From NCBI GenBank assembly GCA_945901855.1, contig CAMDLT010000013.1, positions 3,421-67,420 of the forward strand: a stretch of DNA of 64,000 nucleotides, read 5' to 3'. Both the position numbers and the translations under genes were made by a program. The notes beneath the pieces are model-generated. The model was not told where the DNA came from and ran no database searches. It saw nothing but the letters and a program-made list of their open reading frames with translations. This DNA comes from Asaia bogorensis. Lineage in GTDB: Bacteria > Pseudomonadota > Alphaproteobacteria > CACIAM-22H2. This document shows, piece by piece, positions 32,679-56,408 of this stretch; position 1 is the first letter of the stretch; every line of letters starts with the position of its first letter.

Positions 32679-33161
32679 TCACGGGTTCGCCCCCGTCGGG
32701 ACGGGACCGCGCAAGGCTTCGACGATCTGCGCCAGCGCTTGCAGCAGAATCGCCGCTGCCGCGATCGGAACCGGCACGTACAGCAAGGCCGCCGACAACG
32801 GAACGCTGATCCACTCGACGTCCAGATTGCGCTCGATCAGCAAGGGGCCATACCGCAGCATCACCAGCGCGAGCGCCACGACGCAGGCTTGGATCGCGAC
32901 CTCCGCAATGCGGCGCGCCGTCGGTCCCAGTTTGTCGATGAACACGTCGATCCGGATATGGCTGCGATTGCGCGCGGCCAAGATCCACCCGACGAACCCG
33001 GTCCATACCAGAAGATACTGCGCCGCCTCGTCGGTCCATGGCAGCGGCGCGCCGACCTGGCGCGAGACGACGCCCGCCACCACGCTCGCCAAAAGCGAAA
33101 ACAACAGCAGCGACGCCGCGACGCGCAGCGCAAGATCGCTCGCGCGTCGCAGCCCCGCCAT
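32679..33161 (-). CDS. TRAP transporter small permease (DctQ)
   Basis: 160 aa, MAGLRRASDLALRVAASLLLFSLLASVVAG, 4 TM segments. ATGA overlap with dctP. Confidence 0.8.
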   Translation of the reverse strand: MAGLRRASDLALRVAASLLLFSLLASVVAGVVSRQVGAPLPWTDEAAQYLLVWTGFVGWILAARNRSHIRIDVFIDKLGPTARRIAEVAIQACVVALALVMLRYGPLLIERNLDVEWISVPLSAALLYVPVPIAAAAILLQALAQIVEALRGPVPTGANP

Positions 33162-34144: not shown

Positions 34145-34240
34145 GTTTTATCTCCCTTTGTTGCGACGCCTTTTGGCGCCTTTGACGCCGCCAGCGGTTG
34201 ACCCGCCGGCGATTTTGCGCTGGATCGGTCGTTTCTTTGG

Positions 34241-35823: not shown

Positions 35824-35922
35824 TTTGTTCGCTCCCCCAACAAGCTTTGATTCGAAGTTTGACGTACCAAACGACTTCAGTCAACGCTAACATGTCAGTC
35901 AGTTGAGAAACAGGAGTTGGAA

Positions 35923-37760: not shown

Positions 37761-37762
37761 AC

Positions 37763-38212
37763 ATGCTCATATCCGTCGATCCAGTGCTGACGCCCGACTT
37801 GCTGTGGATCCTTGCGTCGATGGGACACGGCGACGATCTGGCGCTCGTCGATGCGAACCACCCGGCCGAGCGCATCGCGGCGGCAACGATATCCAAACGT
37901 CTTGTGCGTCTGCCCGGATTGACGATGGAACGCGCCGCGCGCGCGATCCTTTCGGTCTTGCCGCTCGACACTTACGTGCCCGATCCTGCGCGACGCATGG
38001 AAGTTATCGGCGACACCGCAACGGTGCCCGCCGTGCAACAAGCGGTGCAAGCCGAAATCGACCGCGTCAGCGCGGGCCCGCAGCCCCTTGTCGGCGTCGA
38101 GCGCTTCGCATTCTACGATGCGGCAAAGGCCGCATTCGCGGTCGTGCAAGTCGGCGATGCGCGCCTTTACGGCTGCTTCTTGTTCCGCAAAGGCGTGATC
38201 GCGGGCGAGTAA
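37763..38212 (+). CDS. fucU: L-fucose mutarotase (RbsD/FucU family)
   Basis: 149 aa MLISVDPVLTPDLLWILASMGHGDDLALVDANHPA...RFAFYDAAKAAFAVVQVGDARLYGCFLFRKGVI, closely matching the FucU pattern (MGHGDEI..D..FP; RFAFYERAQKAFAIV..GE...YGNILLKKGV). AAGAGG RBS. Confidence 0.75.
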   Translation: MLISVDPVLTPDLLWILASMGHGDDLALVDANHPAERIAAATISKRLVRLPGLTMERAARAILSVLPLDTYVPDPARRMEVIGDTATVPAVQQAVQAEIDRVSAGPQPLVGVERFAFYDAAKAAFAVVQVGDARLYGCFLFRKGVIAGE

Positions 38213-38291
38213 GCGGCAGTTCGGGCAAACCGCCCTTGCACGCGCCTGTTTCTTCAAGCCGCGTTCTACCGGCGGCTGCGTGCCGGCCCGG

Positions 38292-41200
38292 TCACGCCCG
38301 CGCTTGCGGGTGCGTCGCACGCACCAGCGCTGCCGCCAACTCGGCAGCACGCACCGGCTTGGAAACATAATCGTTCATGCCCGCCGCCAGATACATCTCG
38401 CGGTCGCCGGACATCGCATTGGCGGTCAGCGCGACGATCGGCACCTGGCCGAAGGGCACCGGCAGCAGACGGATCTGGCGCGTTGCCTCGTCGCCGTCCA
38501 TCTCGGGCATCTGCGCGTCCATCAAGATCGCGTCGAAACGCTTGGCGCTGGCGCGGGCGACCGCCTGCACGCCGTTCGAAACAAATTCGTGGCGATGGCC
38601 CATGCGCGCCAGCATTTCGCCGACGACCATGCGATTGACCTCGTTGTCCTCGGCAACCAGCAGGTCGAGCGAGATGCTTGCGGCAGGCACAATCGGCGCC
38701 TGCGCGGCTTCGGGCGCAAGCGGCACCAAAGCGCCGAGCGGGATCGCAAAGCGGAAGGTCGAGCCCACCCCTTCCACGGACTCGACGCTCAAATCCCCGT
38801 CCATTAGACGGGCAAGTTCGCGCGATATCGCAAGGCCAAGCCCCGTGCCGCCGAAGCGCCGCGCGATGCTCTCGTCGGCTTGGCTGAAACGCTCGAACAG
38901 CCGGTCCAGCGCATCCGGCGCGATGCCGATGCCGGTATCCACGACCGAAAACACCACCCCGGCAGCGCCCGACGCGCACCGCCCCGTCGCCAGCGCGACA
39001 TTGACGCTGCCCGTTTGCGTGAATTTGATCGCGTTGCCGAGGAGGTTGAGCAGCACTTGGCGCGCGCGGGTTGCATCCACCGCCAATGCGCGCGGAACGT
39101 CCGGCGCCGCGCTTGCGGTCAGCCTCAATCCCTTTTTATCAGCCGTTGCCGACATCAGCGCTACCGCTTCGTCGATCAGATCTACCGGATCGACGATCCC
39201 GCGTTCGAGCCGCATTTCGCCCGACTCAAGTTTGGAATAGTCGAGAATGTCGTCGATGATGGTCAGCAACGCCGTCACCGAACGCTCGACCACCGCGACG
39301 TAGCCGCGTTGGCGCTCATCGAGTTCGGTGCCCGCCAGCAACTCGGCCATGCCCAGCACGCCGTTCATCGGCGTGCGAATTTCGTGGCTCATCGTCGCCA
39401 AGAAACGCGTCTTGGATTGATTTGCCCCCTCTGCCGCATCCTTGGCCGCGGCCAGATCGTTTGCGATGCGGCGCTCGTTTGTGACGTCGCGGTAGAGCGA
39501 GACGATCGAACCGTCCGGCCCGCGCGATTCGAGCACTTCGATCGTCGCGCCGTTGGTATCGACAAAAGCGAACCGCCCCGTGGGCGCTTGGCGGCGCGCC
39601 AGACGCTGGTGCAGATACGCCTCGCGTTCCGACGCCGTCACATGCGCCATGTCGACCGCAAGTTTGGCCGCCAGCACGTCGGCATAGCGCGCACCGGGCA
39701 CAAGCGACACTTGGGCGGTGGCCTCAAACAGTTCGCGGACCTTGCGATTGGTTGCGACGATGCGATCCTCGGCATCGCACAGCAAAAATCTTTGGCCATC
39801 GAATCGAGCCCGCTGTCGAGCGTGGCGCGCGCAAACTCGGCTTCGCGCCGCAGACGTTCGATGTCGCTCAGATCCAAAAGAGTCCCGAAGACGCGAACCA
39901 GTTCGCCCGACGGCCGCCGCTCGACCAAATAGTCTTCGCGCAAATGGCGGATCGAGCCGTCCGGCGCGACGATGCGATAGCTGCAATTGCCCCGGCCTGC
40001 AGGGCACAGGGTCAGATCGGGCCGCATCGCGCGGTCTTCCGGGTGCAAAAGCTGCCGGAAGCCATCGTCGCCTGCGCGAGTCGCCGGATCGACGCCGCAA
40101 ATCGCGCGCGTGCGCTCCGACGAGACCTGTATTCCCGATGCAGCGTCGAATTCCCACCACCCCAACGAACTGGTCTCCATCGCCAGTTCCAGGCGCGCGC
40201 GAACGTCTTCCAAGCCTGCCAGCAAATCCGCCTGCACGCCGTTCGACAATCTCAAGTTTTTTTCGGCTTTGATTTGCAGGGTGATGTCGCGGTCCGCGCC
40301 GCGATAGCCCCGAAACTGCCCGGATTCGTCGAAGATCGGCTTGCCCGATCGCGCGACCCAGATCGAGGCGCGGTCGGGCAACACTATGTGGACAATACGA
40401 TCCCGAAAACGCTCATGCCGACGCATGGTTTCGCCAAGCGTCGGTTCGCTGCCGTCAACCCCGTTTTTGGTGTCCCAGCCGCCCGGATGCTTGCCCATGC
40501 GCCAGGCCGGATCGACCCCGAGCGAACGGAACGAATCCGACACGTACGAAAAACGATGCGCGGAGTCGGTTTCCCAGACCCAGCCGGAGACAATTTCGGA
40601 GAAATCTGCAAAACGTTCGCGCTCGTCGGCCAGCGCGTCCATCGCGGTCAGGCGCTCGTCGGCCGTGCGCACCAACTCGCCGTGTTGGCGCGCTTGCACG
40701 CGTGCCGTTTGCCAAACCACCGCCAACAAGGCCGTGTAAAGTCCGAAAATCAGGACCGATATCCCGTATTCAAAAACGAGCAAACTGTCGTGGATGGTCT
40801 TGCTCGTCTGCGATACGTCGAAGCAAATCTCAAAAATTGCCTCGACGCGACCGTCCGATGCGCGGATCGGCGCGTAGCTGGCAACGATTTTGTCGAATCG
40901 ACGAGGTCCATCGAAACTGTTGATCAAGCGATCCACGTAGAGCGCGGTCGCAACGCGGCCTTCCAACGCGGATTGCAGGGCATTGAGGTTCGACAAACGG
41001 CGTCCCAGATCGGTCGCGACAGGCGCGTAAATCGTGCGCCCGGCAAGATCGAAAATCTTGATCGCAACAATGTCGGTTTCGCGCGCGAAGCGTCGCATCA
41101 TCGGCGCCACCGTCGCAATTTCGGGGCGTTCGGCCAGAGCTTGGTCGGATAAATTTTCAACCCCGATCGCAATGGCGCGAATCTGGGGCCAGATCGTTTG

Positions 41201-41380
41201 GGAAAGCGCGGTTGCAATCGTTTCGCCGGCCGCTCTGCCATACTCGGTCGTCGCCGCGTCGAACTGACGGTGTTTGATCTCGATTGCGACAACGATGGCG
41301 ATCAACGTCGCGACCAGTCCCGCAACCGCGAACGGCGCAAAGAACCTGACGCGCAGCAAACGATCTTGATTTTGCATCAA
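38292..41380 (-). pseudogene. hybrid sensor histidine kinase / response regulator (TM sensor domain, PAS, PAS, HisKA, HATPase_c, REC), interrupted by a -1/+1 frameshift near 39790-39810
   Basis: ORF 39638..41380 carries a TM-flanked periplasmic sensor and a PAS domain. ORF 38292..40160, in another frame, carries a PAS domain (FLLCDAEDRIVATN), the H-box SHEIRTPMNGVLGMAELL, the HATPase G-boxes and a REC domain (LLVAEDNEVNRMV...ILMDAQMPEMDG). The two frames join at the homopolymer CAAAAATCTTTGG (39791). Confidence 0.6.
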
Positions 41381-41399
41381 TAATGGAACTCACGCGACA

Positions 41400-41670
41400 A
41401 GGTAAAGTCGGTCGAAATTTTTTCGCGGCGAAGCTAGCCCTAATATCTCCTGCCCGCAATCGGTCAAACCACAAAATTAGACATTGGGTTAAAAATCTAT
41501 GTTCTTGATAATACCCTCTTAAAATGCTTCACTTTGGCCATCGTCCTGTCCGGACGTTTGCTGTTTGAAAAGTGAATATCGTACCGATTTCCGATTTTGT
41601 CGGCGAGGCGACATGCGTTTAAAATCAAATACATAAATAGGTAACTGTCGCCTCTCGTCGCCTAGAGTCG
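41400..41670. promoter_or_regulatory. 270-bp AT-rich intergenic island upstream of the sensor kinase, with phased repeats
   Basis: Roughly 40% GC versus the 65-70% background. Contains palindrome CGAAATTTTTTCG (41401-13), three TTAAAAT motifs, tandem CCGATTT x2, and three GTCGCCT copies at exact 10-bp spacing (41647, 41657, 41667). Confidence 0.4.
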
Positions 41671-41671
41671 C

Positions 41672-41968
41672 CTATTTCGCATCGAGCAATGTCTGGACGA
41701 TCACGGTCCATTCGACATCCAACGAGCCCGAGGCTTCCGGCTTGTTTGCCCGCTTATACCAGTAGCGTGCATTCGACGCATCGCCTTCGACGCGGTGGAG
41801 ATAGGCATGCACCCAATCGTGCTGCGCATCGCCCTCTTGCTGCTGGGCCAATTCGTGCGCTTGGTTCCACGCGCCGTTTGCCGCATGCCACAGCGCGGCA
41901 AGCGGGCGCGAGATGTCCTCGGGCGGTTGGGGTTGGGCCAGAGACTGGCGAAAGGCTTCGAGCTTCAT
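41672..41968 (-). CDS. hypothetical small protein (98 aa)
   Basis: Compact ORF with a protein-like composition (MKLEAFRQSLAQPQPPEDISRPLAALWHAANGAWNQAHELAQ...WVHAYLHRVEGDASNARYWYKRANKP). No other gene explains the region. Confidence 0.45.
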   Translation of the reverse strand: MKLEAFRQSLAQPQPPEDISRPLAALWHAANGAWNQAHELAQQQEGDAQHDWVHAYLHRVEGDASNARYWYKRANKPEASGSLDVEWTVIVQTLLDAK

Positions 41969-42030
41969 CTTGACCCGCTCCGACTTTTCCTGGCGAAGTT
42001 GGTGGCCCCAAGAAAGCGAGGAACCGTAGC

Positions 42031-42903
42031 ATGAAAGTTGGATTTGTCGGCCTTGGCATCATGGGGCGTCCGATGGCGCTCAATCTTCTGAAGGCGGGCC
42101 ACGACGTGGCGGTCTGGGCGCGCCGCGAACAGTCGATGGCGCCGTTGCTCGATGCCGGCGCCGAGGCCGCCAATAATCCGGCCGACGCCGCCGCGCGGTC
42201 GCAAATCGTCGTCTCGATGGTGGGCGATGCGCCCGACGTCGCGACCGTCATGCTGGGACCCGATGGCGTCGCCGAGGCCGCAAAACCGGGGCTTGTCGCT
42301 GTCGATATGAGCACGATCCTGCCCGATGCCGCGCGCCAAATCGCGCTCGAACTTGGCGCACGCGGCATCGACTTTCTCGACGCGCCCGTGTCCGGCGGCG
42401 AAGGCGGCGCGATTGCAGGCGCGCTTACGATCATGGTCGGCGGCTCCGAGAGCGGATTTGCGTTTGCAAAACCCGTGTTCGAAGCAATGGGCAAAACGAT
42501 CGTGCATATCGGTCCCTCCGGGGCGGGCCAGGTTTCCAAGGCGGCCAACCAAATCGTCACTGGGATCGGCGTTCTGACGATCGCGGAGATGTTCAATTTC
42601 GTGCGCAAAAACGGCGTCGATCCCGCCAAGGTACGCGAAGCCGTGATGGGCGGATCGGGCGCATCGAAGATCCTGGAGAACCACGGCGGGCGCATGCTGG
42701 CGCGGAATTTCAAACCGGGCTTCAAATCGTGGATGCACCAGAAGGACATGAACATCGTCCTGCAAACGGCACACAAGCTCGGCGTGCCGCTGCCCGCAAC
42801 CGCCGCCGCGGCGCAAATGTTCAACGCGATGGTCGGCAGCGGACTTGGCGAGGAAGATTCGGTCGCAATGCTAAAATTGCTCGAACGGCTCTCCGGCGAG
42901 TGA
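42031..42903 (+). CDS. NAD-binding 3-hydroxyisobutyrate / 2-hydroxy-3-oxopropionate (tartronate semialdehyde) reductase family dehydrogenase
   Basis: MKVGFVGLGIMGRPMALNLLKAGHDV Rossmann N-terminus, catalytic Lys region GPSGAGQVSKAANQI, 290 aa. Confidence 0.85.
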   Translation: MKVGFVGLGIMGRPMALNLLKAGHDVAVWARREQSMAPLLDAGAEAANNPADAAARSQIVVSMVGDAPDVATVMLGPDGVAEAAKPGLVAVDMSTILPDAARQIALELGARGIDFLDAPVSGGEGGAIAGALTIMVGGSESGFAFAKPVFEAMGKTIVHIGPSGAGQVSKAANQIVTGIGVLTIAEMFNFVRKNGVDPAKVREAVMGGSGASKILENHGGRMLARNFKPGFKSWMHQKDMNIVLQTAHKLGVPLPATAAAAQMFNAMVGSGLGEEDSVAMLKLLERLSGE

Positions 42904-42958
42904 GGCGCTTTCGCCCGGCGCCGATCCCGCGTAGACTCTGTCGCCAAGGAGTGCTGCC

Positions 42959-43351
42959 ATGATTTGGGTCGATCGTCGAAAATTCTTGATTCTGGGCGCT
43001 ACGGCGCTGGCGACGTTACCGCGTCTTGCGGCGGCAGCAACGCCGTTTTCGGCCGCGGCATTTGCAGATGCCCAAGCCGCCGACAAGGCCATCTTGGTCG
43101 AAGTCTCGGCCCCTTGGTGCCCCGTCTGCAAAGTGCAGAAGCCGATCCTGGCGCGGTTGCTGGCCGATCCGCGCTTCGCCGAGTATGTGCAGTTCGAAAT
43201 CGATTTCGACACCCGCAAAGACGCCCTGCGCACGGTGAATGCGCGCGTGCAGAGCACGCTGATCGTGTTTCGCGGCAAGGACGAAATCGGCCGCTCGCTC
43301 GGCGATACCAATCCCGCCTCGATCGAAAATCTGCTGAGCATGGCGCTCTAG
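42959..43351 (+). CDS. periplasmic thioredoxin-family protein (SoxW-like)
   Basis: Tat-type signal MIWVDRRKFLILGATALATLPRLAAAA, CxxC active site WCPVCK, 130 aa. Confidence 0.7.
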   Translation: MIWVDRRKFLILGATALATLPRLAAAATPFSAAAFADAQAADKAILVEVSAPWCPVCKVQKPILARLLADPRFAEYVQFEIDFDTRKDALRTVNARVQSTLIVFRGKDEIGRSLGDTNPASIENLLSMAL

Positions 43352-43360
43352 CCGCAAGCG

Positions 43361-44059
43361 ATGCTCGCAACGCTTCCGCTCGCCTTTGTGGCGGGGCTGC
43401 TGTCGACCCTGTCGCCCTGCGTGCTGCCGATCTTGCCGATCGTGCTGGCCGGGGCTGCGACCGCAGGACGAACCGGCGCCGTGGCGCTGGCGGCCGGGCT
43501 CGCTTTGTCGTTCACGGCGATCGGCCTGTTTGTCGCCACGATCGGATTTTCGATCGGCATCGATATCGGCGCGTTTCGTGCCCTCGCCGGGGCGTTGTTG
43601 GTCGCCTTTGGCGCTTTGCTGCTGCTGCCAGCCCTGCGCGCTCAAGTTTCGGCCGCGCTGGGACCGCTCGGCGACCGATTGAACGCGCTGTTTGGGAGCG
43701 CCGGAAATGGTGGCCCGTTTGCGATGGGGCTCGTGCTGGGGGCCGTGTGGACGCCATGCGTGGGCCCGACACTCGGGGCCGCCAGCTTACTTGCGGCCAA
43801 GGGCGAAAATCTTGGCGAGGTCGCGCTCACCATGTTCGTCTTCGGCATCGGGGCGGGTGCCCCGCTGCTGCTGCTGGGCTTCGCCTCGCAAAAGACCCGC
43901 CGCAAGCTCGGCGAGGCCAGCCGCAAACTCGACAAAGTTTTGGGCGGCGGGCTGGTAGTCGCTGGCACATTGGTGCTGACCGGCGCCGACAAATGGCTTG
44001 AGACGCGGCTGCTCGACCTCTCGCCCGAGTGGCTCACGCGCCTGACGACGGCGATCTAG
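43361..44059 (+). CDS. cytochrome c biogenesis protein CcdA / DsbD-family thiol-disulfide transporter (SoxV-like)
   Basis: 6 TM segments with the two conserved cysteines (LSTLSPCVLPILP and VWTPCVGPTLG). Confidence 0.8.
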   Translation: MLATLPLAFVAGLLSTLSPCVLPILPIVLAGAATAGRTGAVALAAGLALSFTAIGLFVATIGFSIGIDIGAFRALAGALLVAFGALLLLPALRAQVSAALGPLGDRLNALFGSAGNGGPFAMGLVLGAVWTPCVGPTLGAASLLAAKGENLGEVALTMFVFGIGAGAPLLLLGFASQKTRRKLGEASRKLDKVLGGGLVVAGTLVLTGADKWLETRLLDLSPEWLTRLTTAI

Positions 44060-44548
44060 TCAGAACGTAATCTCGTCGACGATCGCGGCGAGACCGGCCT
44101 TGGCGCATTTGTCGTCGGCCGCGCCGCCGGGCGCGCCGGAAACGCCGATGCCGCCGAAAATCGTGCCCCCGCCTTCGACCACGACGCCGCCGCCGACCGC
44201 AACGATGCGCGGAAAACTACGCAAACCCGACATTTCGCCCGACTGCGAAAGCTGCGCGATGGCCAGCGTATCCTGGCGCAGCGTGATGGCCGTGTAGGCC
44301 TTGTCGATCGCAACGCCAACCGTGTGGGGGCCCGCAAACCGATCGCGCAGCACGATCTGCGCCACGCCCGAGCGGTCGACCACCGCGACGGCAATTTGGA
44401 ATCCGTCGGCACGGCACGCGGCTAAAACGGCTTGGGCCGCCTTCAGCGCCGTCTCCGGCGTCAAATGCCGAACCGCGAACGTGCCTTCCTGGGCATTCGC
44501 GCCGGATGCGAAGATCGCAACCGCCAAAACGACAGAACGAAATGCCAT
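44060..44548 (-). CDS. GlcG/HbpS-like (DUF336) putative heme-binding protein with signal peptide
   Basis: MAFRSVVLAVAIFASGANA signal. DUF336-type segments (AVAVVDRSGVAQIVLRDRFAGPHTVGVAIDKAYTAITL, GGGVVVEGGGTIFGGIGVSGAPGGAADDKCA). Confidence 0.65.
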   Translation of the reverse strand: MAFRSVVLAVAIFASGANAQEGTFAVRHLTPETALKAAQAVLAACRADGFQIAVAVVDRSGVAQIVLRDRFAGPHTVGVAIDKAYTAITLRQDTLAIAQLSQSGEMSGLRSFPRIVAVGGGVVVEGGGTIFGGIGVSGAPGGAADDKCAKAGLAAIVDEITF

Positions 44549-44557
44549 AACGACTCC

Positions 44558-46279
44558 CTAGCGCTCAAAACCGGGGTTGGACTCCATGCCGACCAGACGC
44601 GGCAAGTTGGGCTCGATCGCCGCGACCGTTTTGCGCGATCGCAAATGCCGCGCGACCAAATCCCAGATCGGCTCGCCGCCGGCATCGCGCGCCTCGCCCG
44701 ATACCGGCGCCCACCCGGCCACCTTGTAGCGCCCGGATGGTTCGACATCGCGCCCGCGCACCTGCATATCGCGAATGCGTCGGCCCATCGCCGCAGTCGG
44801 ATCGCAAGCGTAGGTCAGCCCCCCGACCCGCACCATGTCGCCGCCCTGCTGCTGGTAGGGATCGGGATTGAACAGATTGTCGCACACGTCCTCGAGCACA
44901 GTCTTCAATGTCTCGCCGGTCATTTCGGTCAGCGTCGAAAACGGATACGTGATTGCAGTCTGGTCCAGCAGTTGGTCCATCGTAATCGCGTCGCCCGGCA
45001 GCACGGTGGTGCCCCAGCGGAAGCCCGGCGAAAGCGCAATCTCGGCGTCTTTTTCGGCCATCAGCGCGTCGCAGATCAACTGGTCGAAACTCCCGTTGAA
45101 ATTGCCGCGCCGGTAGAGCAAGCCCTCGCTGGTCGCAAGTTTCTCGCCGAGCTTCGCTGCATGCGGCGCACGGACCTGCTCGATCAATGCCGCCATCTCA
45201 AGGTCGGCCGGCAGCAAATCTGCGAACACTGGCATTAGCTTGTAGCGCCAGCCTGCAACACCGCCCGCCCCGACATCCAGATCCAGCACGCCCAAGAACT
45301 TGCCGTTCGAGCCGGCATTCGTCACGATCGTCTTGCCGCCGCCGTTAGCGACCACCGTCGGTGCCGGCATGCCATCATGCGTATGGCCGCCCAATATCGC
45401 GTCGATGCCGCGCACGCGGGCCGCCATTTTCAGGTCCACATCCATGCCATTGTGCGAGAGCAGGACGACGACTTTGGCGCCTGCGGCACGCGCCGCATCG
45501 ACCGTCTTCTGCATGTTTTCTTCTTGGATCCCGAAGGTCCATTCTTCGACGAAATAGCGCGGGTTGGCGATGGGCGTATAAGGAAAAGCTTGGCCAATCA
45601 CCGCCACTTTGACGCCGCCAATCTCGCGCTCGACATAGGCCTGGAAAACCGGATCGTTGAAATCGGCCGTCTTGATGTTCTGCGCGACAATGTCGATTTT
45701 GCCCGCAAAATCTTTCTCGGCGATCTCCAGTACGCGCGCATGGCCGTAGGTGCATTCCCAATGCAGCGTCATGACATCGACACCCAGGAGCTTGGCCGCA
45801 TCGACCATGTCCTGGCCTTTGCTCCAAAGGGATGTCCCGGAGCCTTGCCACGTATCGCCCCCATCGAGCAGGACCGCACCGGGACGCGAAGCGCGCACCC
45901 GTTTGACCAGCGAGGCCAAATGCGCAAATCCACCAACCTTGCCGTAGAGACGAGCCAAGCGCGCAAAATCTTCGTAGCCGAAGGCGTGCGCTTCATGGCC
46001 ACCGGGCCGGATGCCATAATGCGCCAACAGTTTGGCGCCTACCAGATGCGGCGGCTGGCCCGCCATCGTTCCGATGCCGAGATTGACGTTCGGCTCGCGG
46101 AAATGGACGGGCAGCAGCTGGGCGTGACAGTCGGTGAAATGCAGCAGCGAAACTTGGCCAAAACGCGGCATTTCATAGAGCCGGTCGGCCTCGCTCTGGG
46201 CGTGCGCCGGGTCGAAGGACAGCGCCATGCCAGCTGCCGACGCAGCGCCAAGCACTTGCAGGAACTCTCGGCGGTCCAT
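44558..46279 (-). CDS. soxB: thiosulfohydrolase SoxB (5'-nucleotidase / metallophosphatase family)
   Basis: Tat signal MDRREFLQVLGAASAAGMAL, 573 aa. Dinuclear metallophosphatase motifs (LLHFTDCHAQ, GGDTWQGSG, LSHNGMDVD, GGHTHD) and a C-terminal 5'-nucleotidase domain, within a sox gene context. Confidence 0.85.
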   Translation of the reverse strand: MDRREFLQVLGAASAAGMALSFDPAHAQSEADRLYEMPRFGQVSLLHFTDCHAQLLPVHFREPNVNLGIGTMAGQPPHLVGAKLLAHYGIRPGGHEAHAFGYEDFARLARLYGKVGGFAHLASLVKRVRASRPGAVLLDGGDTWQGSGTSLWSKGQDMVDAAKLLGVDVMTLHWECTYGHARVLEIAEKDFAGKIDIVAQNIKTADFNDPVFQAYVEREIGGVKVAVIGQAFPYTPIANPRYFVEEWTFGIQEENMQKTVDAARAAGAKVVVLLSHNGMDVDLKMAARVRGIDAILGGHTHDGMPAPTVVANGGGKTIVTNAGSNGKFLGVLDLDVGAGGVAGWRYKLMPVFADLLPADLEMAALIEQVRAPHAAKLGEKLATSEGLLYRRGNFNGSFDQLICDALMAEKDAEIALSPGFRWGTTVLPGDAITMDQLLDQTAITYPFSTLTEMTGETLKTVLEDVCDNLFNPDPYQQQGGDMVRVGGLTYACDPTAAMGRRIRDMQVRGRDVEPSGRYKVAGWAPVSGEARDAGGEPIWDLVARHLRSRKTVAAIEPNLPRLVGMESNPGFER

Positions 46280-46291
46280 TGCTCGCGGCCG

Positions 46292-46924
46292 CTACTTGTT
46301 GACCGGCGATGCGGGATCGAGCAACAACGCCATAATATCCTTCAATTGCGTCTCGTTGAGGATGCCCATATGGCCCGCGCGCGGCATATTCGAACACGCG
46401 TTCGAAGATTTCGAGTTGTAGATTTTTGCCCAAGTCGCGCGCAGCACGTCCGCCTCGGTGCCGCGCAGTTTGCCGTAACCAAGCAAACTGGGGCCGATCG
46501 TGCCGTACGAAATCTCGGATGCCGAGATTTGGTGGCAATTGTAGCAATTGCCGCCGCTGACCTGGGTCGCGCTGTCGGTCCAAGTGAGTCCGCGTCCCGA
46601 TTGCGCGATCGTCTCGCCGCGCCGCCAGTCACCCAGATACTGCCCGTCCGCCGGAAACTTCACGGCGGCAAGATTGGCCTGCTCAATCGCCTCAGCGCGC
46701 TTGGCGTTCGCAGGCGCAGCCGCAGCAACCGGATCGGAACAGAAGGCCTGCGTTTCGTCCTGCTGAAGCCGATCAGTTTTGACGGCGTTGCGGTCGCGGA
46801 AGCTCGTGCGGAGCAACTCGCCGAACGTATTGTCGTTCGCACCCGCCCCCCAGGAAGAACTCTGTGCCAGCGCATCTCCCGATAGAGCGAATACAAGCAC
46901 GACGGCGTAAAAAATAGCTTTCAT
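46292..46924 (-). CDS. soxX: monoheme cytochrome c SoxX
   Basis: Signal peptide MKAIFYAVVLVFALSGDALA, single CxxCH (GGNCYNCHQ), 210 aa, GGAG RBS. Located between soxA and soxB. Confidence 0.7.
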   Translation of the reverse strand: MKAIFYAVVLVFALSGDALAQSSSWGAGANDNTFGELLRTSFRDRNAVKTDRLQQDETQAFCSDPVAAAAPANAKRAEAIEQANLAAVKFPADGQYLGDWRRGETIAQSGRGLTWTDSATQVSGGNCYNCHQISASEISYGTIGPSLLGYGKLRGTEADVLRATWAKIYNSKSSNACSNMPRAGHMGILNETQLKDIMALLLDPASPVNK

Positions 46925-46935
46925 GGACCTGCTCC

Positions 46936-47757
46936 TTAGCGCTTGATGCCAGGTGTCTGGATTTCTTCGCCGTTCGCTGTCGCCCCCATGTAGACCGAAA
47001 GCGCGATCGTCGCGTCGGACGCATAGATCGGCTCGGGGAAACGCTGCTGACGGAAGCAATCCTGCAAACGCCATTGCATCGACCACATTTGGCCTGCACT
47101 GACGCGGTAGGCAGGCCAACTCGTCCAGCCCAACGCAGCGCCCTTGGTCGAGGGAATGAAAGGCAGTTCTTGAAGGCGGATGCGCTGGCCTTCCTGTCCG
47201 TGACATGTCGCACACGAAAAATCGTGCGGGCCGCCTTGGAAATAGAACATGCGCTTGCCCAGATCGAACATCGCCTTTTCTTTGGGATGGGTCGTCGGAA
47301 CCTTAACCGGCATGCCCTTCGATTCCGCCGAGATATAGGTCGCCAACGCCACCAACTCGTTCTTCTTCGGCGTATTGAAGCTAGCCGACACATGCTCGCG
47401 CACGTCGATGCCCTGCAGCGTCTCCATGCATGTGAGCAAGCGCGATTCGACATCTTGAACACGGTCGGTATCGGCAAAATAACGCGGCAACTGTGCGAAG
47501 GCGCCCTCGACTTTGCCGGGTCCCACCCCAAGATCGCAGGCGGCAAAAGAGGCATTGCGCGGACCTGCGGGTTTTTTCCACAGTTCCTCGCCCATTGCCT
47601 CGAACAACTCGGCCGGATTGCCTTGCTTGAGCTGTTCGCGATAGGCCTCGATCCCGCGCAGCGAATCGTCTTTTTCCTGGGCACCCAGCCCCGCCGCAAA
47701 CCCGCCAACCAAAGCAATGCCCGCGATCGCTGCGATCACCTGGAATCGAACCTTCAT
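46936..47757 (-). CDS. soxA: L-cysteine S-thiosulfotransferase subunit SoxA (monoheme type)
   Basis: Signal MKVRFQVIAAIAGIALVGGFAAG, heme motif CATCHG, SoxA-typical C-terminal segment WPAYRVSAGQMWSMQWRLQDCFRQQRFPE, GGAGG RBS. Confidence 0.8.
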   Translation of the reverse strand: MKVRFQVIAAIAGIALVGGFAAGLGAQEKDDSLRGIEAYREQLKQGNPAELFEAMGEELWKKPAGPRNASFAACDLGVGPGKVEGAFAQLPRYFADTDRVQDVESRLLTCMETLQGIDVREHVSASFNTPKKNELVALATYISAESKGMPVKVPTTHPKEKAMFDLGKRMFYFQGGPHDFSCATCHGQEGQRIRLQELPFIPSTKGAALGWTSWPAYRVSAGQMWSMQWRLQDCFRQQRFPEPIYASDATIALSVYMGATANGEEIQTPGIKR

Positions 47758-47797
47758 GCGCCTTCCTCCCCGTTGCCGTCCGCCCGACAATTCCGCT

Positions 47798-48109
47798 TCA
47801 AGCGATCGTTGCCTCATCGGTGCGCGATTCGTTTTTGTTGTCGGTCCATTTCACGACGACCTTGTCGCCGGCTTTGCCGCCACTGAACTTGAATGCGAAA
47901 TAGGGGTTCTTCGAAACAGCCGGCCCCCAACTCGACGTCATCACGACCTTGCCATTATGCGTCGCCGTCACTTCATTGATGAACCAAGCCGGAACGACAG
48001 CACCGGCGGCATCCAAGCGCTGGCCCGTTTCCATCTCGTGGTTCATCAAGACGCGAACTTCAGTCACGCCGTCGCGCGTCGCTGCGCGTATGCGCATGGG
48101 ATTTGCCAT
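47798..48109 (-). CDS. soxZ: thiosulfate oxidation carrier complex protein SoxZ
   Basis: 103 aa, MANPMRIRAATRDGVTEVRVLMNHEMETGQR...VPAWFINEVTATHNGKVV, the conserved SoxZ pattern. Confidence 0.85.
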   Translation of the reverse strand: MANPMRIRAATRDGVTEVRVLMNHEMETGQRLDAAGAVVPAWFINEVTATHNGKVVMTSSWGPAVSKNPYFAFKFSGGKAGDKVVVKWTDNKNESRTDEATIA

Positions 48110-48136
48110 TGTCCGATCTCCTTCTTGAAGACAGCT

Positions 48137-48604
48137 TCAGCCGCCGCAGCCGCCGAGCGTGACCTTGATCTCTTTGGTCGCCGAAAACACCTTGCCGCCT
48201 GCAACCGCAAGCGCCACCACGTTCGACGTCTGGCCCATTTTGACCCGCGTGGTCACGTCCGCAACGGCCTCCGGCAAAATGTCGAAGGTCGCCGCCAACA
48301 TGTTCGGGTTCTTTTCGACCATCAGCGCGAGGCGCGTCGTATTCGCGATCCGGCTGACGATCTGGATGGGCACAACCGCGCCGTTCTCGGCGATATCAGA
48401 AGCGATCAGTTGCAACTCGCCCGATGCTGTTGGCGTCTCGAGGCCGAGCGCTTTGAGCGTGTCGGGAATGTTCTTGCCCTCGAACGCGGCTTTGTTCCAC
48501 TCTGCCAAAGCGGCACGGCTGGGCAAAAGGCCTAGCGACACGAGAGCGGCAAACAGCCCTCCGCTCGCCAAGACCTGTCGGCGTTCTCCATTTACGTGGC
48601 TCAT
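48137..48604 (-). CDS. soxY: thiosulfate oxidation carrier protein SoxY
   Basis: Tat-like signal (RRQVLASGGLFAALVSLG) and the diagnostic C-terminal GGCGG substrate-carrying cysteine motif. Confidence 0.85.
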   Translation of the reverse strand: MSHVNGERRQVLASGGLFAALVSLGLLPSRAALAEWNKAAFEGKNIPDTLKALGLETPTASGELQLIASDIAENGAVVPIQIVSRIANTTRLALMVEKNPNMLAATFDILPEAVADVTTRVKMGQTSNVVALAVAGGKVFSATKEIKVTLGGCGG

Positions 48605-48625
48605 TCGCTTCTCCTTCGGGTCCCG

Positions 48626-49681
48626 TCATTTTTCCGGCGCACCGGCCAGAATCCAATCCACTAGCATCTTGGTGTCGGCGTCGTTCAAGTCGGGGTGCGG
48701 CGGCATCGGCAGATTGCCCCAAACGCCCTCCCCCCCATTGCGCACACGCGCGAACATTAACCCGGCGACATCTTGGTTACGATACTTCAAAGCGATTTCG
48801 TTGTAACCTGGCCCAATGATTTTCTGGCTGACGCCGTGGCAAGCAAGGCAGCCGGATTCCTGGGCTAACCGCATTGGCGCGCCGATCTCGTCATCGAAAT
48901 CGAACTCGCCCGGCCCCGTCACGAGCCCGCGCATTGGCCCAACAATGCGGTTCTGCAGGGCCAAATTGCCGTGTGCACCGCGCGCATGGTCGGGAAGGCG
49001 CGAAGCAATTTGCGCGTCGGACTTGCAATCCTTCATGCAGGCCTGCGCATTCGTGTCGGGCTTGATCGCCGTGTTGCCGAAGCCTTTGCCCGGCCACATC
49101 GCATGTTCGGTCGACATGCCGTTGCGATTGGGCAAACTTGCTTGGACGTCGCGAATCGTACGTTCGTTGAGCTCGAATTCGGCCGGAACAATGTCGGCCA
49201 AATTAAGCATGTACGCCACGACCGCATAAACTTCGTCGTCGGTCATCGATTTGGGTGCGGTCCACGGCATGGCGCGGCGCACATAGTCGAACAAGGTGGC
49301 GATCGTAGGCAGTTTCATAAAGGTCGAGCGCTGCGGATAATCGGGGCGCGCCAAGGTGGCGACGCGTCCGGTCTCAATGTCGCGCGCAGTGGTGCCACCG
49401 ACGATCGGCGTAAATGTGTGGTTGGCCTCGCCGAATGTACCGTGGCACGAGGCGCATTTTTCGTCCCATAGAATCTCGCCCTGCGCAACGGTCCCCCGGC
49501 CGCGCGGCAAACCCACAAAGTCGGGGCGCACGTCGATATCCCATGCTTTTATTTCGTCAGACGTAGCCAGACGTCCGATGCCTGGGAAGCGGTCGGCAGC
49601 CGATGCCGCCGCGGCCAACGTCAAGCCTAAACAAACAAGGAGCAATCGGCTAAAAGATCTGAACATTGCCGACCTCGCCAT
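48626..49681 (-). CDS. soxD: diheme cytochrome c SoxD
   Basis: Signal MARSAMFRSFSRLLLVCLGLTLAAAASA, two CxxCH motifs (CASCHG, CLACHG), directly downstream of soxC. ATG 49666 is an alternative start. Confidence 0.7.
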   Translation of the reverse strand: MARSAMFRSFSRLLLVCLGLTLAAAASAADRFPGIGRLATSDEIKAWDIDVRPDFVGLPRGRGTVAQGEILWDEKCASCHGTFGEANHTFTPIVGGTTARDIETGRVATLARPDYPQRSTFMKLPTIATLFDYVRRAMPWTAPKSMTDDEVYAVVAYMLNLADIVPAEFELNERTIRDVQASLPNRNGMSTEHAMWPGKGFGNTAIKPDTNAQACMKDCKSDAQIASRLPDHARGAHGNLALQNRIVGPMRGLVTGPGEFDFDDEIGAPMRLAQESGCLACHGVSQKIIGPGYNEIALKYRNQDVAGLMFARVRNGGEGVWGNLPMPPHPDLNDADTKMLVDWILAGAPEK

Positions 49682-51020
49682 TTGCCGCGATCTGCCAGGA
49701 TTGGATTGCATTGTTGTGGTAGATCGAGCGCGTACCGCGCACCTCGCGCAGCTGGCCGTAAGAGGGCTGCACATAGCCCGTCTCGTCGATCGCGCGCGAT
49801 TGGAGCAAGCGATCGCTGCCGTCCCAAACGAAGGGCAGCGAGAAGCGCGTTAGGCATTTGGAGAGTACCGGCGTTTGCAGCGCCGCCGTTGTCCAATTGC
49901 GCCCGCCATCGATCGACACATCGACACGCCGGATCCGCCCGCGCCCCGACCACGCCAGACCGCTGATCGTGTAAAATCCTTTTTCGAGCAACGCTTGGCC
50001 GCCTGATGGCGACGTGATCACCGACTTGCATTCCTGGATCGACGTGTATTGGCGGTGCGTGCCATCGGACATCAAATCGATGTAATGAACGGCCTCGTCT
50101 TTGGCGCCGTAGGGCTGGTCGCCAAGTTCGATACGACGCAGCCACTTGACCCACGATACGCCCTGCACGCCGGGCACCACCAGACGCAGCGGATAGCCGT
50201 TTTCGGGCCGCAGCATCTCGCCGTTTTGCCCGTAAGCGACCAGCACTTCACCAGCCAAAACCGAATCGAGCGGGATCGTACGCGTCATTGACGAACCGTC
50301 CGCACCTTCGGCCAAGACGAATTTCCCACGCGCAAAATCGGCGCCGCAATCCTCGAGCAGCGTGCGCAGCGGGACGCCCGTGAACTCGCTGCACGACAGC
50401 ATGCCGTGCGTATACTGCACGGTGGGAACAGCAACGTTTCCCCATTCCATACCGGTATTAGCACCGCATTCGATGAAACAAATCCGGGATACCGACGGCA
50501 GGCGCATCAGATCGTCAAGCGTATAGACTTTTGGCCGTCGCACGAGGCCCGGCACGGCGCCAGTCACCATAAACCGATGCCGACGCGGATCGATATCGTG
50601 CCAACCTTGATGATGGCGCTCAAAATGCAAACCTGAGGGCGTAATGATGCCGAACAAGCCCTGCAACGGCGCAAACGAGACACTCGACCCGGCCGTCTGC
50701 GTCAGGCCCGGACTTTGTCGCCGACCAAGTCCGCGTTCATAGCGCGATGGCGAACCGTAGGGTGTGGTTGCGACGGGTTTGCCAAGCGACGTGCTCCACG
50801 GCGGCAAATTGAGTATCTGCGAGTCGCCCGTTGCTGCTACAGCGGGACCCGCAGCGACAGCACCAGTCGAAACGAGTGCCGTTTTCAAAAAGGCGCGACG
50901 CCCTTTGGATATCTCGGAAATTTCGAGCGGCGACAGAAAATTCTCGGGCGCCCGGCGTAGGGCGCCGCGCGTTTCCAGTCCCTCACCCGCCGGGTTTTCC
51001 CCTGACGATATCTTGCTCAT
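49650..51020 (-). CDS. soxC: sulfane dehydrogenase molybdopterin subunit SoxC (sulfite-oxidase family)
   Basis: Tat signal KGRRAFLKTALVSTGAVAAGPAVAA, 456 aa. Sulfite-oxidase family Mo-domain motifs (GLHFERHH, FIECGANTG with the Mo-ligand Cys) and a C-terminal dimerisation domain. Confidence 0.8.
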   Translation of the reverse strand: MSKISSGENPAGEGLETRGALRRAPENFLSPLEISEISKGRRAFLKTALVSTGAVAAGPAVAATGDSQILNLPPWSTSLGKPVATTPYGSPSRYERGLGRRQSPGLTQTAGSSVSFAPLQGLFGIITPSGLHFERHHQGWHDIDPRRHRFMVTGAVPGLVRRPKVYTLDDLMRLPSVSRICFIECGANTGMEWGNVAVPTVQYTHGMLSCSEFTGVPLRTLLEDCGADFARGKFVLAEGADGSSMTRTIPLDSVLAGEVLVAYGQNGEMLRPENGYPLRLVVPGVQGVSWVKWLRRIELGDQPYGAKDEAVHYIDLMSDGTHRQYTSIQECKSVITSPSGGQALLEKGFYTISGLAWSGRGRIRRVDVSIDGGRNWTTAALQTPVLSKCLTRFSLPFVWDGSDRLLQSRAIDETGYVQPSYGQLREVRGTRSIYHNNAIQSWQIAANGEVGNVQIF

Positions 51021-51066
51021 TCGTTTCCTTCCCGAATGAACATTAGCAGCATCTAATACGAAAATG

Positions 51067-51097
51067 CAAGAAATCTAACGAGGTCGTTTAGATTTCT
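51067..51097. promoter_or_regulatory. perfect 11-bp-arm palindrome AAGAAATCTAA-N9-TTAGATTTCTT upstream of soxC
   Basis: Seen directly in the AT-rich 215-bp gap between soxC (start 51020) and the upstream dehydrogenase gene (end 51236). Could be an operator for a sox regulator, or a weak U-tailed terminator for the upstream minus-strand gene. Confidence 0.4.
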
Positions 51098-51235
51098 TTC
51101 CGAGAGTCCGGATCGCAGTTTGCCGCCAGTGTGGCGGGCGTGTCCCCGCAGTCGAGTGCCCGCTCAACCGACAGAGCTTGCCGTTATGCCGCCAGGCGCG
51201 ACGCGTAGGGTCGAAGCGTTTTTTGTCAAGCGCGC

Positions 51236-52204
51236 CTAGACAACGATATCGTCGGCCGGCAGCGGCTCGCCGCGCGAGACGGCCATAATATTGGCAAACA
51301 TGCGGTTAACGGTTGGCGCGTAATTGTCGGCGGCGATTGCCGCCAGATGCGGCGTAAGAATAAGATTGTCGATGCCGACTAGATTGCTGTTGGCGGGCAG
51401 CGGTTCAACTGCAAACACATCCATCGCTGCCGCATGGATTGTGCCGTCGCGCAAAGCACGCACCAGATCACCCTCGACCACCACACCGCCGCGCGCCACA
51501 TTGACGAGGATGGCGCTCCGCTTCATCGTCGCGAGTGCTTGGAAATCGATCAAGTTCTTGGTCTCGGGAGTCATTGGACAATGCAGCGACACAACGTCGC
51601 TGCGGGCGAGAAGTTCGGACAAGGGCGCATAGCGCGCACCTAACGCCCGCTCTTCATCGGCCGAAAGTCGGTTCGGCTTGTGGTAGAGAATCGTGCAGCC
51701 GAACCCCTGCAGTATACGCGCAACTGCTTTGCCGATGGCGCCAAATCCGATCAGGCCAACCGTTTTGCCCGACAGCATAAAAGTTTCGCGCGTTTGCGCG
51801 TCCACGCCGCGCCAAGCACCGCCACGCAAATCGGCATGCCCATTGGCGATATGGCGCAGCGTCGCCAACATGAGCCCGAGCGTGAATTCCGCGACTGGAA
51901 TCGCGTTGCTGCCTGTCGTACGCGCCACCTTGATGCCGCAGGCGCGTGCGGCCTCCAAGTCGAAGTTATCGACGCCAACTCCCCATTTGTGCAGCAGCTT
52001 CAGCTTGCGCGCCGCGCGCATAACGTCGCCGCCAACGCCCACTTGGCCCGAAATCGCGTAGTCGGCGTCGGCGATCAGCTCCTTCAAATGCAGATCGCCG
52101 CGCGCAGTGGCGCAACTGAGAGAAAACCCCGGCGGCACATAGTGCCGCAGCTTTGCTAGGTTTTTTTCGGTAAGCGGATCGACGACGACGATCGATTGGG
52201 CCAT
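51236..52204 (-). CDS. D-isomer-specific 2-hydroxyacid dehydrogenase family protein (NAD-binding)
   Basis: 322 aa from MAQSIVVVD. GxGxxG NAD motif GLIGFGAIGKAVA and the catalytic Arg/Glu/His triad region (VARGGVV...EPL...LTPH). Confidence 0.85.
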   Translation of the reverse strand: MAQSIVVVDPLTEKNLAKLRHYVPPGFSLSCATARGDLHLKELIADADYAISGQVGVGGDVMRAARKLKLLHKWGVGVDNFDLEAARACGIKVARTTGSNAIPVAEFTLGLMLATLRHIANGHADLRGGAWRGVDAQTRETFMLSGKTVGLIGFGAIGKAVARILQGFGCTILYHKPNRLSADEERALGARYAPLSELLARSDVVSLHCPMTPETKNLIDFQALATMKRSAILVNVARGGVVVEGDLVRALRDGTIHAAAMDVFAVEPLPANSNLVGIDNLILTPHLAAIAADNYAPTVNRMFANIMAVSRGEPLPADDIVV

Positions 52205-55650: not shown

Positions 55651-56397
55651 TTACCCCACGGCATGGCGCGGAAGCGGAATGGCTTCGATGGCCCTGTCGC
55701 CGAAGCGCAAATAGCCCTCCTCAAGCGGCAATTCGCGCGCGACGATGAGCCCGTCGCTTTGGACGCCGTGCGTCGGGTCAAGCATCCGTCGACCTTTTGT
55801 GCCGGGCGGATCGAATGTCCATTCCTGAAATCCCAGAATGTAGAAATTCAGCATCACTGCGGGTTTGTCGTCGGCACAAAACCAGTGCGCATTGCGCGAA
55901 ACCTCGGTCGTCTCGAACCTGTCACCGATGCCGAACCAGCGGTCAGTGCGCGTGCGCAGCAGCAGCGTGTCGGGCGCGACGCGCGCAACGCGATCCCATT
56001 CGCGTGCATAAACGCGCCCCTCGAGCACGACCTGGGTTGAAATCAAATTGTGATGGCAATGCGGCGGATGCACCTCGCCCGGATCGAGATACAGAAGCTG
56101 CATCGTCCAGGATTTAGCGGGCGTCGTCATTTGGTTGAGCACTTGGTCCGTCCGCTCGTCGAGCGCCTTGCGGATCCAGGGTTTGAGTTCGGCGACCAAA
56201 TCGATCGACCGGTGCAACGCGCGAATCCGATCGATATAGTCATCGGGTGTAATCGCATGGCAGCCCAACGCGTCGATCGAGGCTTCGGCTTGCGTCCATA
56301 GACGCTCGCGATAGGCATCGACATCGGGCAGCACGGCCCCTGCGCGCGTGTTTATCTTCACGATCTTGCCGGACGCCGTTTTGATCTCTTTGGCCAT
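55651..56397 (-). CDS. cupin-fold protein (metal-binding HxH...E motif)
   Basis: MAKEIKTASG..., cupin motif GEVHPPHCHHNLISTQVVLEG. A GAGGGAG RBS lies upstream of ATG 56397; the ATG at 56412 lies inside that RBS. Confidence 0.55.
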   Translation of the reverse strand: MAKEIKTASGKIVKINTRAGAVLPDVDAYRERLWTQAEASIDALGCHAITPDDYIDRIRALHRSIDLVAELKPWIRKALDERTDQVLNQMTTPAKSWTMQLLYLDPGEVHPPHCHHNLISTQVVLEGRVYAREWDRVARVAPDTLLLRTRTDRWFGIGDRFETTEVSRNAHWFCADDKPAVMLNFYILGFQEWTFDPPGTKGRRMLDPTHGVQSDGLIVARELPLEEGYLRFGDRAIEAIPLPRHAVG

Positions 56398-56408
56398 CGC
56401 CAACTCCC

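Follow-up and report, generated by a model that had tools for sequence, protein, structure and literature searches.

A predicted complete lineage B Sox system with type II SoxAX and no SoxR gene in view in an uncultured, probably Rhodospirillales-like alphaproteobacterium

Introduction

Does a sox gene cluster that departs from the Paracoccus paradigm in its gene order, its heme content and its regulatory genes represent an unusual system, or a known variant of the thiosulfate-oxidation pathway? The question is raised by a 64-kb stretch of a metagenomic contig (GenBank CAMDLT010000013.1, positions 3,421 to 67,420 of the forward strand; ENA ERZ27280227), the whole of which is called the window below. 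The region at issue comprises positions 42959-51020 of the window and the DNA upstream of soxC. An earlier note on this DNA had described there a cluster in the order soxC-D-Y-Z-A-X-B with monoheme SoxA and SoxX, convergent soxW- and soxV-like genes, no soxRS, and a long palindrome in front of soxC. We conclude that the region very probably encodes a complete periplasmic Sox system of the published lineage B, with a type II, two-heme SoxAX, in an uncultured alphaproteobacterium that is probably Rhodospirillales-like.

Materials and Methods

Ten genes were identified in the region, with agreement among the open reading frame (ORF) listing, the precomputed gene calls, and the family models. Family membership was tested with NCBIfam equivalog models and their curated cut-offs, with Pfam, and by sequence matches to the PDB. 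To obtain related loci, SoxB was searched against GTDB genomes, one for each species, and 80 loci with 65-76% SoxB identity were recovered; close relatives, i.e., contigs with SoxC 89-99% identical to that of the window, were gathered via the protein cluster and a homology search. The annotated sox region of P. ferrooxidans pFER4 supplied the Paracoccus reference proteins. Among the loci named below, L177 is a 4.09-Mb metagenome-assembled genome (MAG), L004 is Tagaea sp., L019 is Azospirillum sp. TSO35-2, and L003 is Rhizobiales bacterium UBA697.

The sox gene cluster

All core Sox components are recognizable in the window, as the earlier note had proposed, and all seven genes are arranged on the minus strand in the order soxC-D-Y-Z-A-X-B (Table 1). 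Six of the products exceed the equivalog cut-offs of NCBIfam, and these are accompanied by a diheme SoxD; the set of SoxXA, SoxYZ, SoxB, and SoxCD is thus complete. SoxB scores 856 bits with TIGR04486 (cut-off 550) and matches Thermus SoxB (PDB 2WDC, E 3e-123). SoxC scores 607 bits with TIGR04555 (cut-off 420) and matches 2XTS_A with E 4e-118, and the cysteine of its ECGAN motif aligns with that of EC(G/A)AN in 2XTS. SoxY (TIGR04488, 150 bits, cut-off 125) matches the solved SoxY chains 2NNC and 2OXG. SoxA (TIGR04484, 244 bits, cut-off 110) and SoxX (TIGR04485, 83 bits, cut-off 61) fall in the cytochrome families to which they had been assigned, and both match the structure 3OA8. The motifs read earlier in SoxY (GGCGG), SoxA (a single CATCH), and SoxX (CYNCH) are all present in the sequence.

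SoxD is 30% identical to Paracoccus SoxD (E 2e-28). Its N-terminal half resembles 2XTS_B, the Paracoccus SoxD chain (E 6e-22), and its C-terminal domain resembles cytochrome c551/552. The soxC and soxD genes overlap by 17 nt, and an identical overlap is found in the Paracoccus reference record. All sox ORFs are unbroken and have signal peptides. The longest ORFs of soxX (307 aa) and soxA (293 aa) are too long; the called genes comprise 210 and 273 aa, and the 3OA8 alignments suit these shorter forms. In L177, the closest relative with a complete genome, the soxD call (11334-12086) comprises just 250 aa, compared with 346 aa in the window, and its product may be devoid of the C-terminal cytochrome c551-like domain.

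Table 1. Features of the sox region in the window and HbpS-like homologs near sox genes at related loci
Feature	Position	Strand	Description
Thioredoxin gene	42959-43351	+	130 aa; twin-arginine translocation (TAT) signal RRKFL; active site WCPVC; Pfam Thioredoxin 2e-08
CcdA/DsbD-type gene, SoxV-like	43361-44059	+	thiol:disulfide electron transporter, 232 aa; Pfam DsbD_TM 3.5e-15
HbpS-like gene	44060-44548	-	DUF336 (GlcG family), secreted, 162 aa; PF03928 1e-28; between soxB and the CcdA-type gene
soxB	44558-46279	-	thiosulfohydrolase, 573 aa; TAT signal RREFL
soxX	46292-46924	-	monoheme cytochrome c (CYNCH), 210 aa; long type II form
soxA	46936-47757	-	monoheme cytochrome c, single CATCH, 273 aa; type II
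soxZ	47798-48109	-	103 aa; TIGR04490 130 bits (cut-off 76); Pfam SoxZ
soxY	48137-48604	-	155 aa; TAT signal; C-terminal GGCGG swinging arm (ends TLGGCGG)
soxD	48626-49666	-	diheme cytochrome c, 346 aa; two CxxCH; Pfam cytochrome c
soxC	49650-51020	-	molybdenum sulfane dehydrogenase, 456 aa; TAT signal GRRAFL
Putative soxC promoter and leader	51021-51069	-	-35-like TTGCAT (51069-51064), 18-nt spacer, -10-like TAATGT (51045-51040)
Ribosome-binding site of soxC	51033-51024	-	GGGAAGGAAA, in the soxC leader, read from sequence
Second short dyad	51057-51042	-	ATTAG-N6-CTAAT, overlapping the putative -10
Palindrome	51068-51098		AAGAAATCTAA-N9-TTAGATTTCTT, 48 nt before the soxC ATG
HbpS-like homolog, L004	4667-5188		
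HbpS-like homolog, L177	9433-9939		
HbpS-like homolog, L078	11679-12215		
HbpS-like homolog, L136	5433-5861		

The best solved match of SoxA is the type II SoxAX of Starkeya novella (3OA8_A, E 2e-70), whereas matches to type I diheme structures are far weaker (1H31, E 9e-16; 2C1D, E 2e-14). SoxX matches only the Starkeya SoxX (3OA8_B, E 1e-46) among solved structures. The cysteine of the RLQDCFRQ segment of SoxA aligns with the axial-ligand cysteine that is represented by methionine in entry 3OCD. No gene for a SoxK subunit was called, and the soxA/soxX and soxX/soxB gaps comprise just 11-12 nt; the third subunit SoxK is the mark of type III SoxAX. To our knowledge, SoxX is monoheme in all SoxAX types. 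As judged from these features, the SoxAX of the window is of type II, with one heme per subunit, a retained heme-ligand cysteine in SoxA, and no SoxK. The type is that of the Kappler and Maher classification, as cited in PMC4003848.

The earlier note had regarded the gene order and the single hemes of SoxA and SoxX as departures from the Paracoccus paradigm. Both observations hold, as the order differs from that of Paracoccus and each of the two cytochromes contains one CxxCH motif, but neither feature is unusual. The full soxCDYZAXB order occurs at 42 of the 80 SoxB loci, and at a further 16 loci soxY-Z-A-X-B alone is in view. The 42 loci belong mainly to Betaproteobacteria, joined by Tagaea, Azospirillum, and one Rhizobiales MAG; the betaproteobacterial genera among the 80 loci include Cupriavidus, Pandoraea, Polynucleobacter, Thauera, Dechloromonas, Azonexus, and Methyloversatilis. 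This order has been published as lineage B and equated with type 2 monoheme SoxA (Spring, 2014; PMC4003848). Single hemes are likewise standard in the related proteins (SoxA, 71 of 71; SoxX, 75 of 75), SoxD is diheme in 48 of 49 cases, and the GGCGG end of SoxY is found in 67 of 68. Comparison with annotated sox loci thus places the cluster in lineage B, and the deviations from the Paracoccus paradigm are published traits that define that lineage.

The three nearest loci are all alphaproteobacterial, namely those of Tagaea sp., Rhizobiales bacterium UBA697, and Azospirillum sp. TSO35-2, with 74-76% identity of SoxB and SoxC. In a plasmid collection the best match of SoxB was 55% identical, and no lineage B cluster was found there.

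The thioredoxin and CcdA-type genes

The thioredoxin gene (active site WCPVC) and the ccdA homolog do converge on the end of the cluster, both lying on the plus strand at 42959-44059; of the two labels that the earlier note had given them, one holds better than the other. The CcdA-type protein contains two conserved cysteines, in SPCVLP and TPCVGP, and is 29% identical to Paracoccus SoxV over 232 aligned positions (BLASTP, E 2e-10), in agreement with the SoxV-like label. The SoxW-like label agrees with the position, fold and export signal of the thioredoxin and not with its sequence. The protein stays under every cut-off of the NCBIfam models and has neither BLASTP similarity nor a tblastn match to Paracoccus SoxW/SoxS, whose active site reads GC[IL]YC (GCIYC/GCLYC) as opposed to WCPVC in the window. 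Because no similarity is detectable and the CxxC motif differs, the label is positional.

Homologs of the thioredoxin (65%) and of the CcdA-type protein (54%) lie beside the sox cluster of Tagaea, and a weaker, partial CcdA match lies beside sox at the metagenome locus L136. The pair is also kept in the close relatives. Its position beside sox in Tagaea and its retention in close relatives support a Sox-linked role.

Proposed mechanism and physiological role

The following steps are established knowledge of the Sox family, applied here by analogy, with the parts assigned from sequence. SoxAX would oxidatively join thiosulfate to the cysteine of the GGCGG arm of SoxY on the SoxYZ carrier, and SoxB would hydrolyse off the terminal sulfone as sulfate. 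SoxCD would then take six electrons from the sulfane sulfur left on SoxY, after which SoxB would free the second sulfate, so that eight electrons per thiosulfate would pass to c-type cytochromes. Most likely, the CcdA-type protein would transfer reducing equivalents through the membrane for use by the TAT-exported thioredoxin, and the latter would keep SoxY reduced and active. This task would be the analog of that of SoxV with SoxS/SoxW in Paracoccus.

Several points weigh against reading the region as a working lineage B system. The sequence stems from a metagenome assembly, and thiosulfate oxidation is predicted here. The thioredoxin has no similarity to SoxW/SoxS, its putative role being read from its position only, and the putative soxC promoter described below consists of weak hexamers that a consensus scan did not report. 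Furthermore, Pusillimonas has a complete lineage B cluster and no direct Sox thiosulfate oxidation (10.1101/708438), and Congregibacter, with a cluster of another lineage, shows no Sox thiosulfate oxidation at millimolar levels (PMC4003848).

A related question is whether the cluster serves auxiliary lithoheterotrophy, sulfur detoxification or the processing of intermediates, e.g., tetrathionate-derived sulfur, and not chemolithoautotrophic growth on thiosulfate. We consider this question evenly balanced. The 64 kb show neither carbon-fixation genes nor any further genes of sulfur oxidation, and the neighbors of the cluster encode heterotrophic functions, i.e., TRAP and ABC transporters and sugar-acid catabolism. 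Precedents are provided by Pusillimonas from the same lineage (10.1101/708438) and by Congregibacter from another (PMC4003848), and a study on Hyphomicrobium describes thiosulfate as a supplemental donor only (PMC12423496). However, the window covers 64 kb of a 223-kb contig, and RuBisCO or further sulfur genes may be encoded outside it. Moreover, an auxiliary role concerns the physiology of the host and not the identity of the system, for which a complete lineage B assignment is retained.

Regulation of the cluster

The claim that soxR and soxS are absent within 5 kb of the cluster can be extended to the entire window. A tblastn search of the whole 64 kb with Paracoccus SoxR, S, T, E, F, G, H, and W as queries, which includes the soxRS and soxEFGH genes suggested for a search by the earlier note, produced no significant match (best E-values: SoxH, 0.007; SoxR, 0.22; SoxE, 0.23; SoxS, 0.66), and no ArsR-type Pfam domain is recorded for any called gene of the window. 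In addition to regulators of the IclR, GntR, and LysR families, all attached to catabolic or transport operons, the precomputed Pfam matches identify a PAS hybrid kinase, which is separated from the thioredoxin gene by 1.6 kb and two unrelated genes. At the kinase locus (38292-41380, minus strand), two gene calls overlap by about 40 nt in different frames, one for a membrane PAS protein of 579 aa and the other for a PAS_7-HisKA-HATPase-REC protein of 461 aa; they may represent either two genes or a single hybrid sensor kinase interrupted by a frameshift, real or assembly-derived.

In related loci, other arrangements are observed. An ArsR/SoxR-like gene with the two-cysteine pattern of persulfide sensors immediately precedes soxC in the same orientation at 27 of the 45 loci that have upstream sequence, and at 18 of the 45 no soxR is found before soxC at the threshold used. 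In L003 (2592-4866 and 17593-19886) and L019 (2562-5044), the genes directly in front of soxC encode a REC-LuxR regulator and a sensor kinase whose periplasmic domain is of the phosphonate-binding type. We take the architecture of this kinase to be that of the TtrS/ThsS thiosulfate/tetrathionate sensors. Such a pair is a third kind of regulatory module on this cluster type; a search for a similar kinase and LuxR regulator in the window gave just a generic HATPase match. In Cupriavidus pinatubonensis, a co-transcribed operon from soxR to soxB has been shown experimentally to be repressed by SoxR (PMC13122954). By its gene content, the cluster of the window is a SoxR-less variant, as already reported for Advenella and Pusillimonas. 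Control would thus proceed without a cluster-encoded SoxR, and a factor acting on a conserved cis-element would be encoded elsewhere.

The candidate cis-element includes the proximal arm of the palindrome before soxC. The palindrome is real and perfect (11+11 nt), occurs once in the window, and is matched in none of 100 shuffles, but its conservation is restricted to the promoter-proximal arm. The proximal block GTTAGATTTCTTGC (51066-51079) and the ribosome-binding region are invariant in all relatives with SoxC at least 89% identical. The entire palindrome is unchanged in six contigs; five of them (L090, L091, and L093-L095) share an upstream 2-hydroxyacid dehydrogenase gene, and the sixth (L092) starts just upstream of the palindrome. 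In L088 and L089, the dehydrogenase gene is separated from soxC by a transporter operon, homology to the window starts inside the distal arm, and the arms are complementary at 8 of 11 positions. L176 (SoxC 89%) departs from the window in its spacer as well as in its distal arm. The proximal arm shows no changes that compensate for the decay of the distal one, and selection therefore keeps the promoter-proximal half and not the symmetry. The insertion in L088 (SoxC 91%) is a 4.4-kb operon of RraA-like and ABC-transporter genes at 1407-5845, to be compared with 51021-51235 in the window, with the right breakpoint in the distal arm.

Beyond these contigs the palindrome was not recovered. Its exact core was found in the window's own contig alone among 82 loci, a dyad scan before soxC in relatives gave nothing in common, and no similar motif precedes soxC in the relatives with 74-78% identity. 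Relatives with SoxC at 79-88% identity, sought to test the palindrome, are absent from the protein database, where the identity falls from 89% straight to 78%.

We infer that a promoter of soxC just downstream of GTTAGATTTCTTGC drives the cluster. The -10 hexamer reads TAGAGT in L088, the 18-nt spacing is retained in L176, and Tagaea has a similar promoter geometry (TTGACA-17-AAATGT). A consensus scan of 42800-51400 for promoters and terminators reported neither the soxC leader nor the palindrome, and searches of the window for Rfam families and tRNAs were negative. A possible sigma-54 promoter noticed by eye upstream of soxC, TGGCGGCAAACTGC, was rejected, as its spacing is GG-N9-GC and not N10 and it falls in the stretch that L088 does not conserve.

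It is possible, and we hold it tentatively, that the palindrome acts mainly as an RNA hairpin which terminates or insulates read-through from the co-directional 2-hydroxyacid dehydrogenase gene, with only the 3' arm doubling as part of the promoter. The full form occurs exactly where the dehydrogenase gene is directly upstream on the same strand (the window, L090, L091, and L093-L095), and in these relatives the stem is followed by GCA and a T-run of up to seven. Where a divergent transporter gene is upstream (L088 and L089), the 5' arm has decayed and the 3' arm is kept. The hairpin is predicted to fold, but with z of just -1.8, and its A/T-rich stem has three G-C pairs out of 11. The T-run of the window comprises only four residues, parted from the stem by GCA, and the terminator scan was negative. 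The comparison spans two or three sub-lineages, and the rearrangement breakpoint may simply fall in the 5' arm.

Doubtful, in our view, is the reading of the palindrome as an operator of a dimeric transcription factor that is encoded elsewhere and replaces SoxR. Such a role would agree with the perfection and uniqueness of the dyad described above and with its location immediately upstream of the putative -35, which it overlaps by 2 nt. The TTAG motif returns in the second dyad over the putative -10, the proximal arm is invariant in three sub-lineages, and related clusters are controlled by palindrome-binding factors at promoters, as by SoxR in Cupriavidus (PMC13122954). However, the distal arm is reduced to 8 of 11 positions in L088/L089 and comparably degraded in L176, with no proximal compensation. 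No candidate regulator gene adjoins the cluster, the half-site occurs nowhere in the window beyond the two arms, and soxC of the 74-78% relatives is preceded by no like motif.

The HbpS-like gene

The genes named in the earlier note are all present, but one more, encoding an HbpS-like protein, had been overlooked between soxB and the CcdA-type gene. The nearest solved relative of the protein is the secreted heme-binding HbpS of Streptomyces (4BMW/3FPV, E 4e-19). Not a single base separates the stop codon of the CcdA-type gene (TAG, 44057-44059) from that of the HbpS-like gene (TGA, complement of 44060-44062); therefore, the opposite transcripts must overlap or end inside each other's gene. The soxCDYZAXB genes and the HbpS-like gene would probably form one transcription unit, with the latter at its end.

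The association with lineage B sox clusters recurs in at least three gene orders. The HbpS-like gene follows soxB in the group of the window and at four betaproteobacterial loci, is divergent upstream of soxC in Tagaea, L136, and L177, and lies beside a SoxW-like gene upstream of soxD/C in L135 and L140. Among the alphaproteobacterial relatives, the divergence of the HbpS-like protein (70-76%) parallels that of SoxB and SoxC (74-76%). We rejected the proposal of a sox-specific subfamily, as sox genes are not in view for about 70 of the 80 homologs from metagenomes (identity, 49-67%), many of these contigs being short. No connection between DUF336 and soxB was found in the literature, and no SenS/SenR-type pair, as in the HbpS-SenS-SenR system, adjoins the gene. 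It seems unlikely, on balance, that in the alphaproteobacterial part of lineage B Sox is switched by a factor acting on the conserved GTTAGATTTCTTGC, in place of a cluster-encoded SoxR, with the HbpS-like protein as a new Sox accessory, e.g., a periplasmic heme or redox helper or a sensor. The HbpS-like protein is offered as a lead to a Sox-related role, below the rank of a finding.

Host and origin of the cluster

Among named sequences, those that best match the ABC-F ATPase encoded beside the cluster come from Rhodospirillales MAGs (86-88%), Telmatospirillum (86%), and Acetobacteraceae (83-85%); the ABC-F of L177 is 89% identical, and plasmid-borne copies in Methylocella and Rhizobium reach up to 82%. 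These matches suggest that the host is probably a Rhodospirillales-like alphaproteobacterium. In a megablast search of the flank at 30000-42900 against plasmids, only trivial matches of 55-83 nt were obtained. Two further genes have no Pfam match: one (41672-41968, minus strand) encodes a conserved protein of 98 aa and lies beside the dehydrogenase-like and thioredoxin genes in all close relatives, and the other (55651-56412, minus strand) encodes a conserved protein of about 248 aa.

A recent horizontal acquisition of the cluster from Betaproteobacteria, which would explain the gene order, is improbable. In its favor, most loci with this order are betaproteobacterial, the surroundings consist of unrelated sugar-acid and transport genes, the flanks vary between close relatives, and the GC content of the cluster (0.60-0.63) is slightly under that of the first 40 kb of the window, which ranges from 0.61 to 0.70 and is mostly about 0.64-0.66. 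On the other side, this dip is small, with other parts of the window lower still, the closest SoxB, SoxC, SoxA, and SoxX are alphaproteobacterial (Tagaea, Azospirillum, and Rhizobiales UBA697), SoxA is 71-75% identical in alphaproteobacterial relatives vs. 46-63% in betaproteobacteria, and the ABC-F marker also indicates Rhodospirillales-like alphaproteobacteria. The alphaproteobacterial ABC-F and closest Sox relatives thus argue against such a transfer, and an alphaproteobacterial sub-branch of lineage B would fit better.

Comparison with known systems

The cluster leaves the understanding of the Sox pathway unchanged and is an ordinary example of a well-described kind. Its value is that it marks an uncultured, Rhodospirillales-like alphaproteobacterium, present in several metagenomes, as a likely thiosulfate oxidizer, and that it adds evidence for an alphaproteobacterial branch of the "betaproteobacterial" soxCDYZAXB/type II arrangement. 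Modest leads concern the control of SoxR-less lineage B clusters and a possible Sox role of the recurrent HbpS-like protein.

The soxTRS-VW-XYZABCDEFGH paradigm of Paracoccus pantotrophus and P. versutus provides the same seven core functions in another gene order, and its SoxA is diheme (type I), whereas that of the window is monoheme. The identities to P. ferrooxidans pFER4 are 52% for SoxB, 46% for SoxC, 41% for SoxY, and 43% for SoxZ. The SoxAX of Starkeya novella (3OA8/3OCD) is closer in type, as it shares with the window one heme in each subunit, the SoxA ligand cysteine, a long SoxX with an N-terminal extension, and the lack of SoxK; the order of the sox genes in S. novella presumably differs from soxCDYZAXB.

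In gene order, the cluster agrees with lineage B of Burkholderiales and Rhodocyclales (Cupriavidus pinatubonensis JMP134, Advenella, Pusillimonas) and of gammaproteobacterial NOR5-1 strains, which have the same seven genes, monoheme SoxA and diheme SoxD, with SoxB 65-72% identical to that of the window (PMC4003848, PMC13122954, 10.1101/708438). Advenella and Pusillimonas, with the order soxCDYZAXOB, share with the window the absence of soxSRT and soxEFGH (10.1101/708438). Unlike these clusters, that of the window combines an HbpS-like gene after soxB, a convergent thioredoxin/CcdA pair, and an alphaproteobacterial host, and none of soxF, soxH, and soxO is in view.

Outside the species group of the window, the closest core proteins (74-78%) are those of Tagaea, L177, Azospirillum L019, and Rhizobiales L003, all with the same gene order. 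The palindrome of the window is absent from these four loci; shared features are the HbpS-like gene, which adjoins sox in Tagaea and L177, and the thioredoxin/CcdA pair, which adjoins it in Tagaea.

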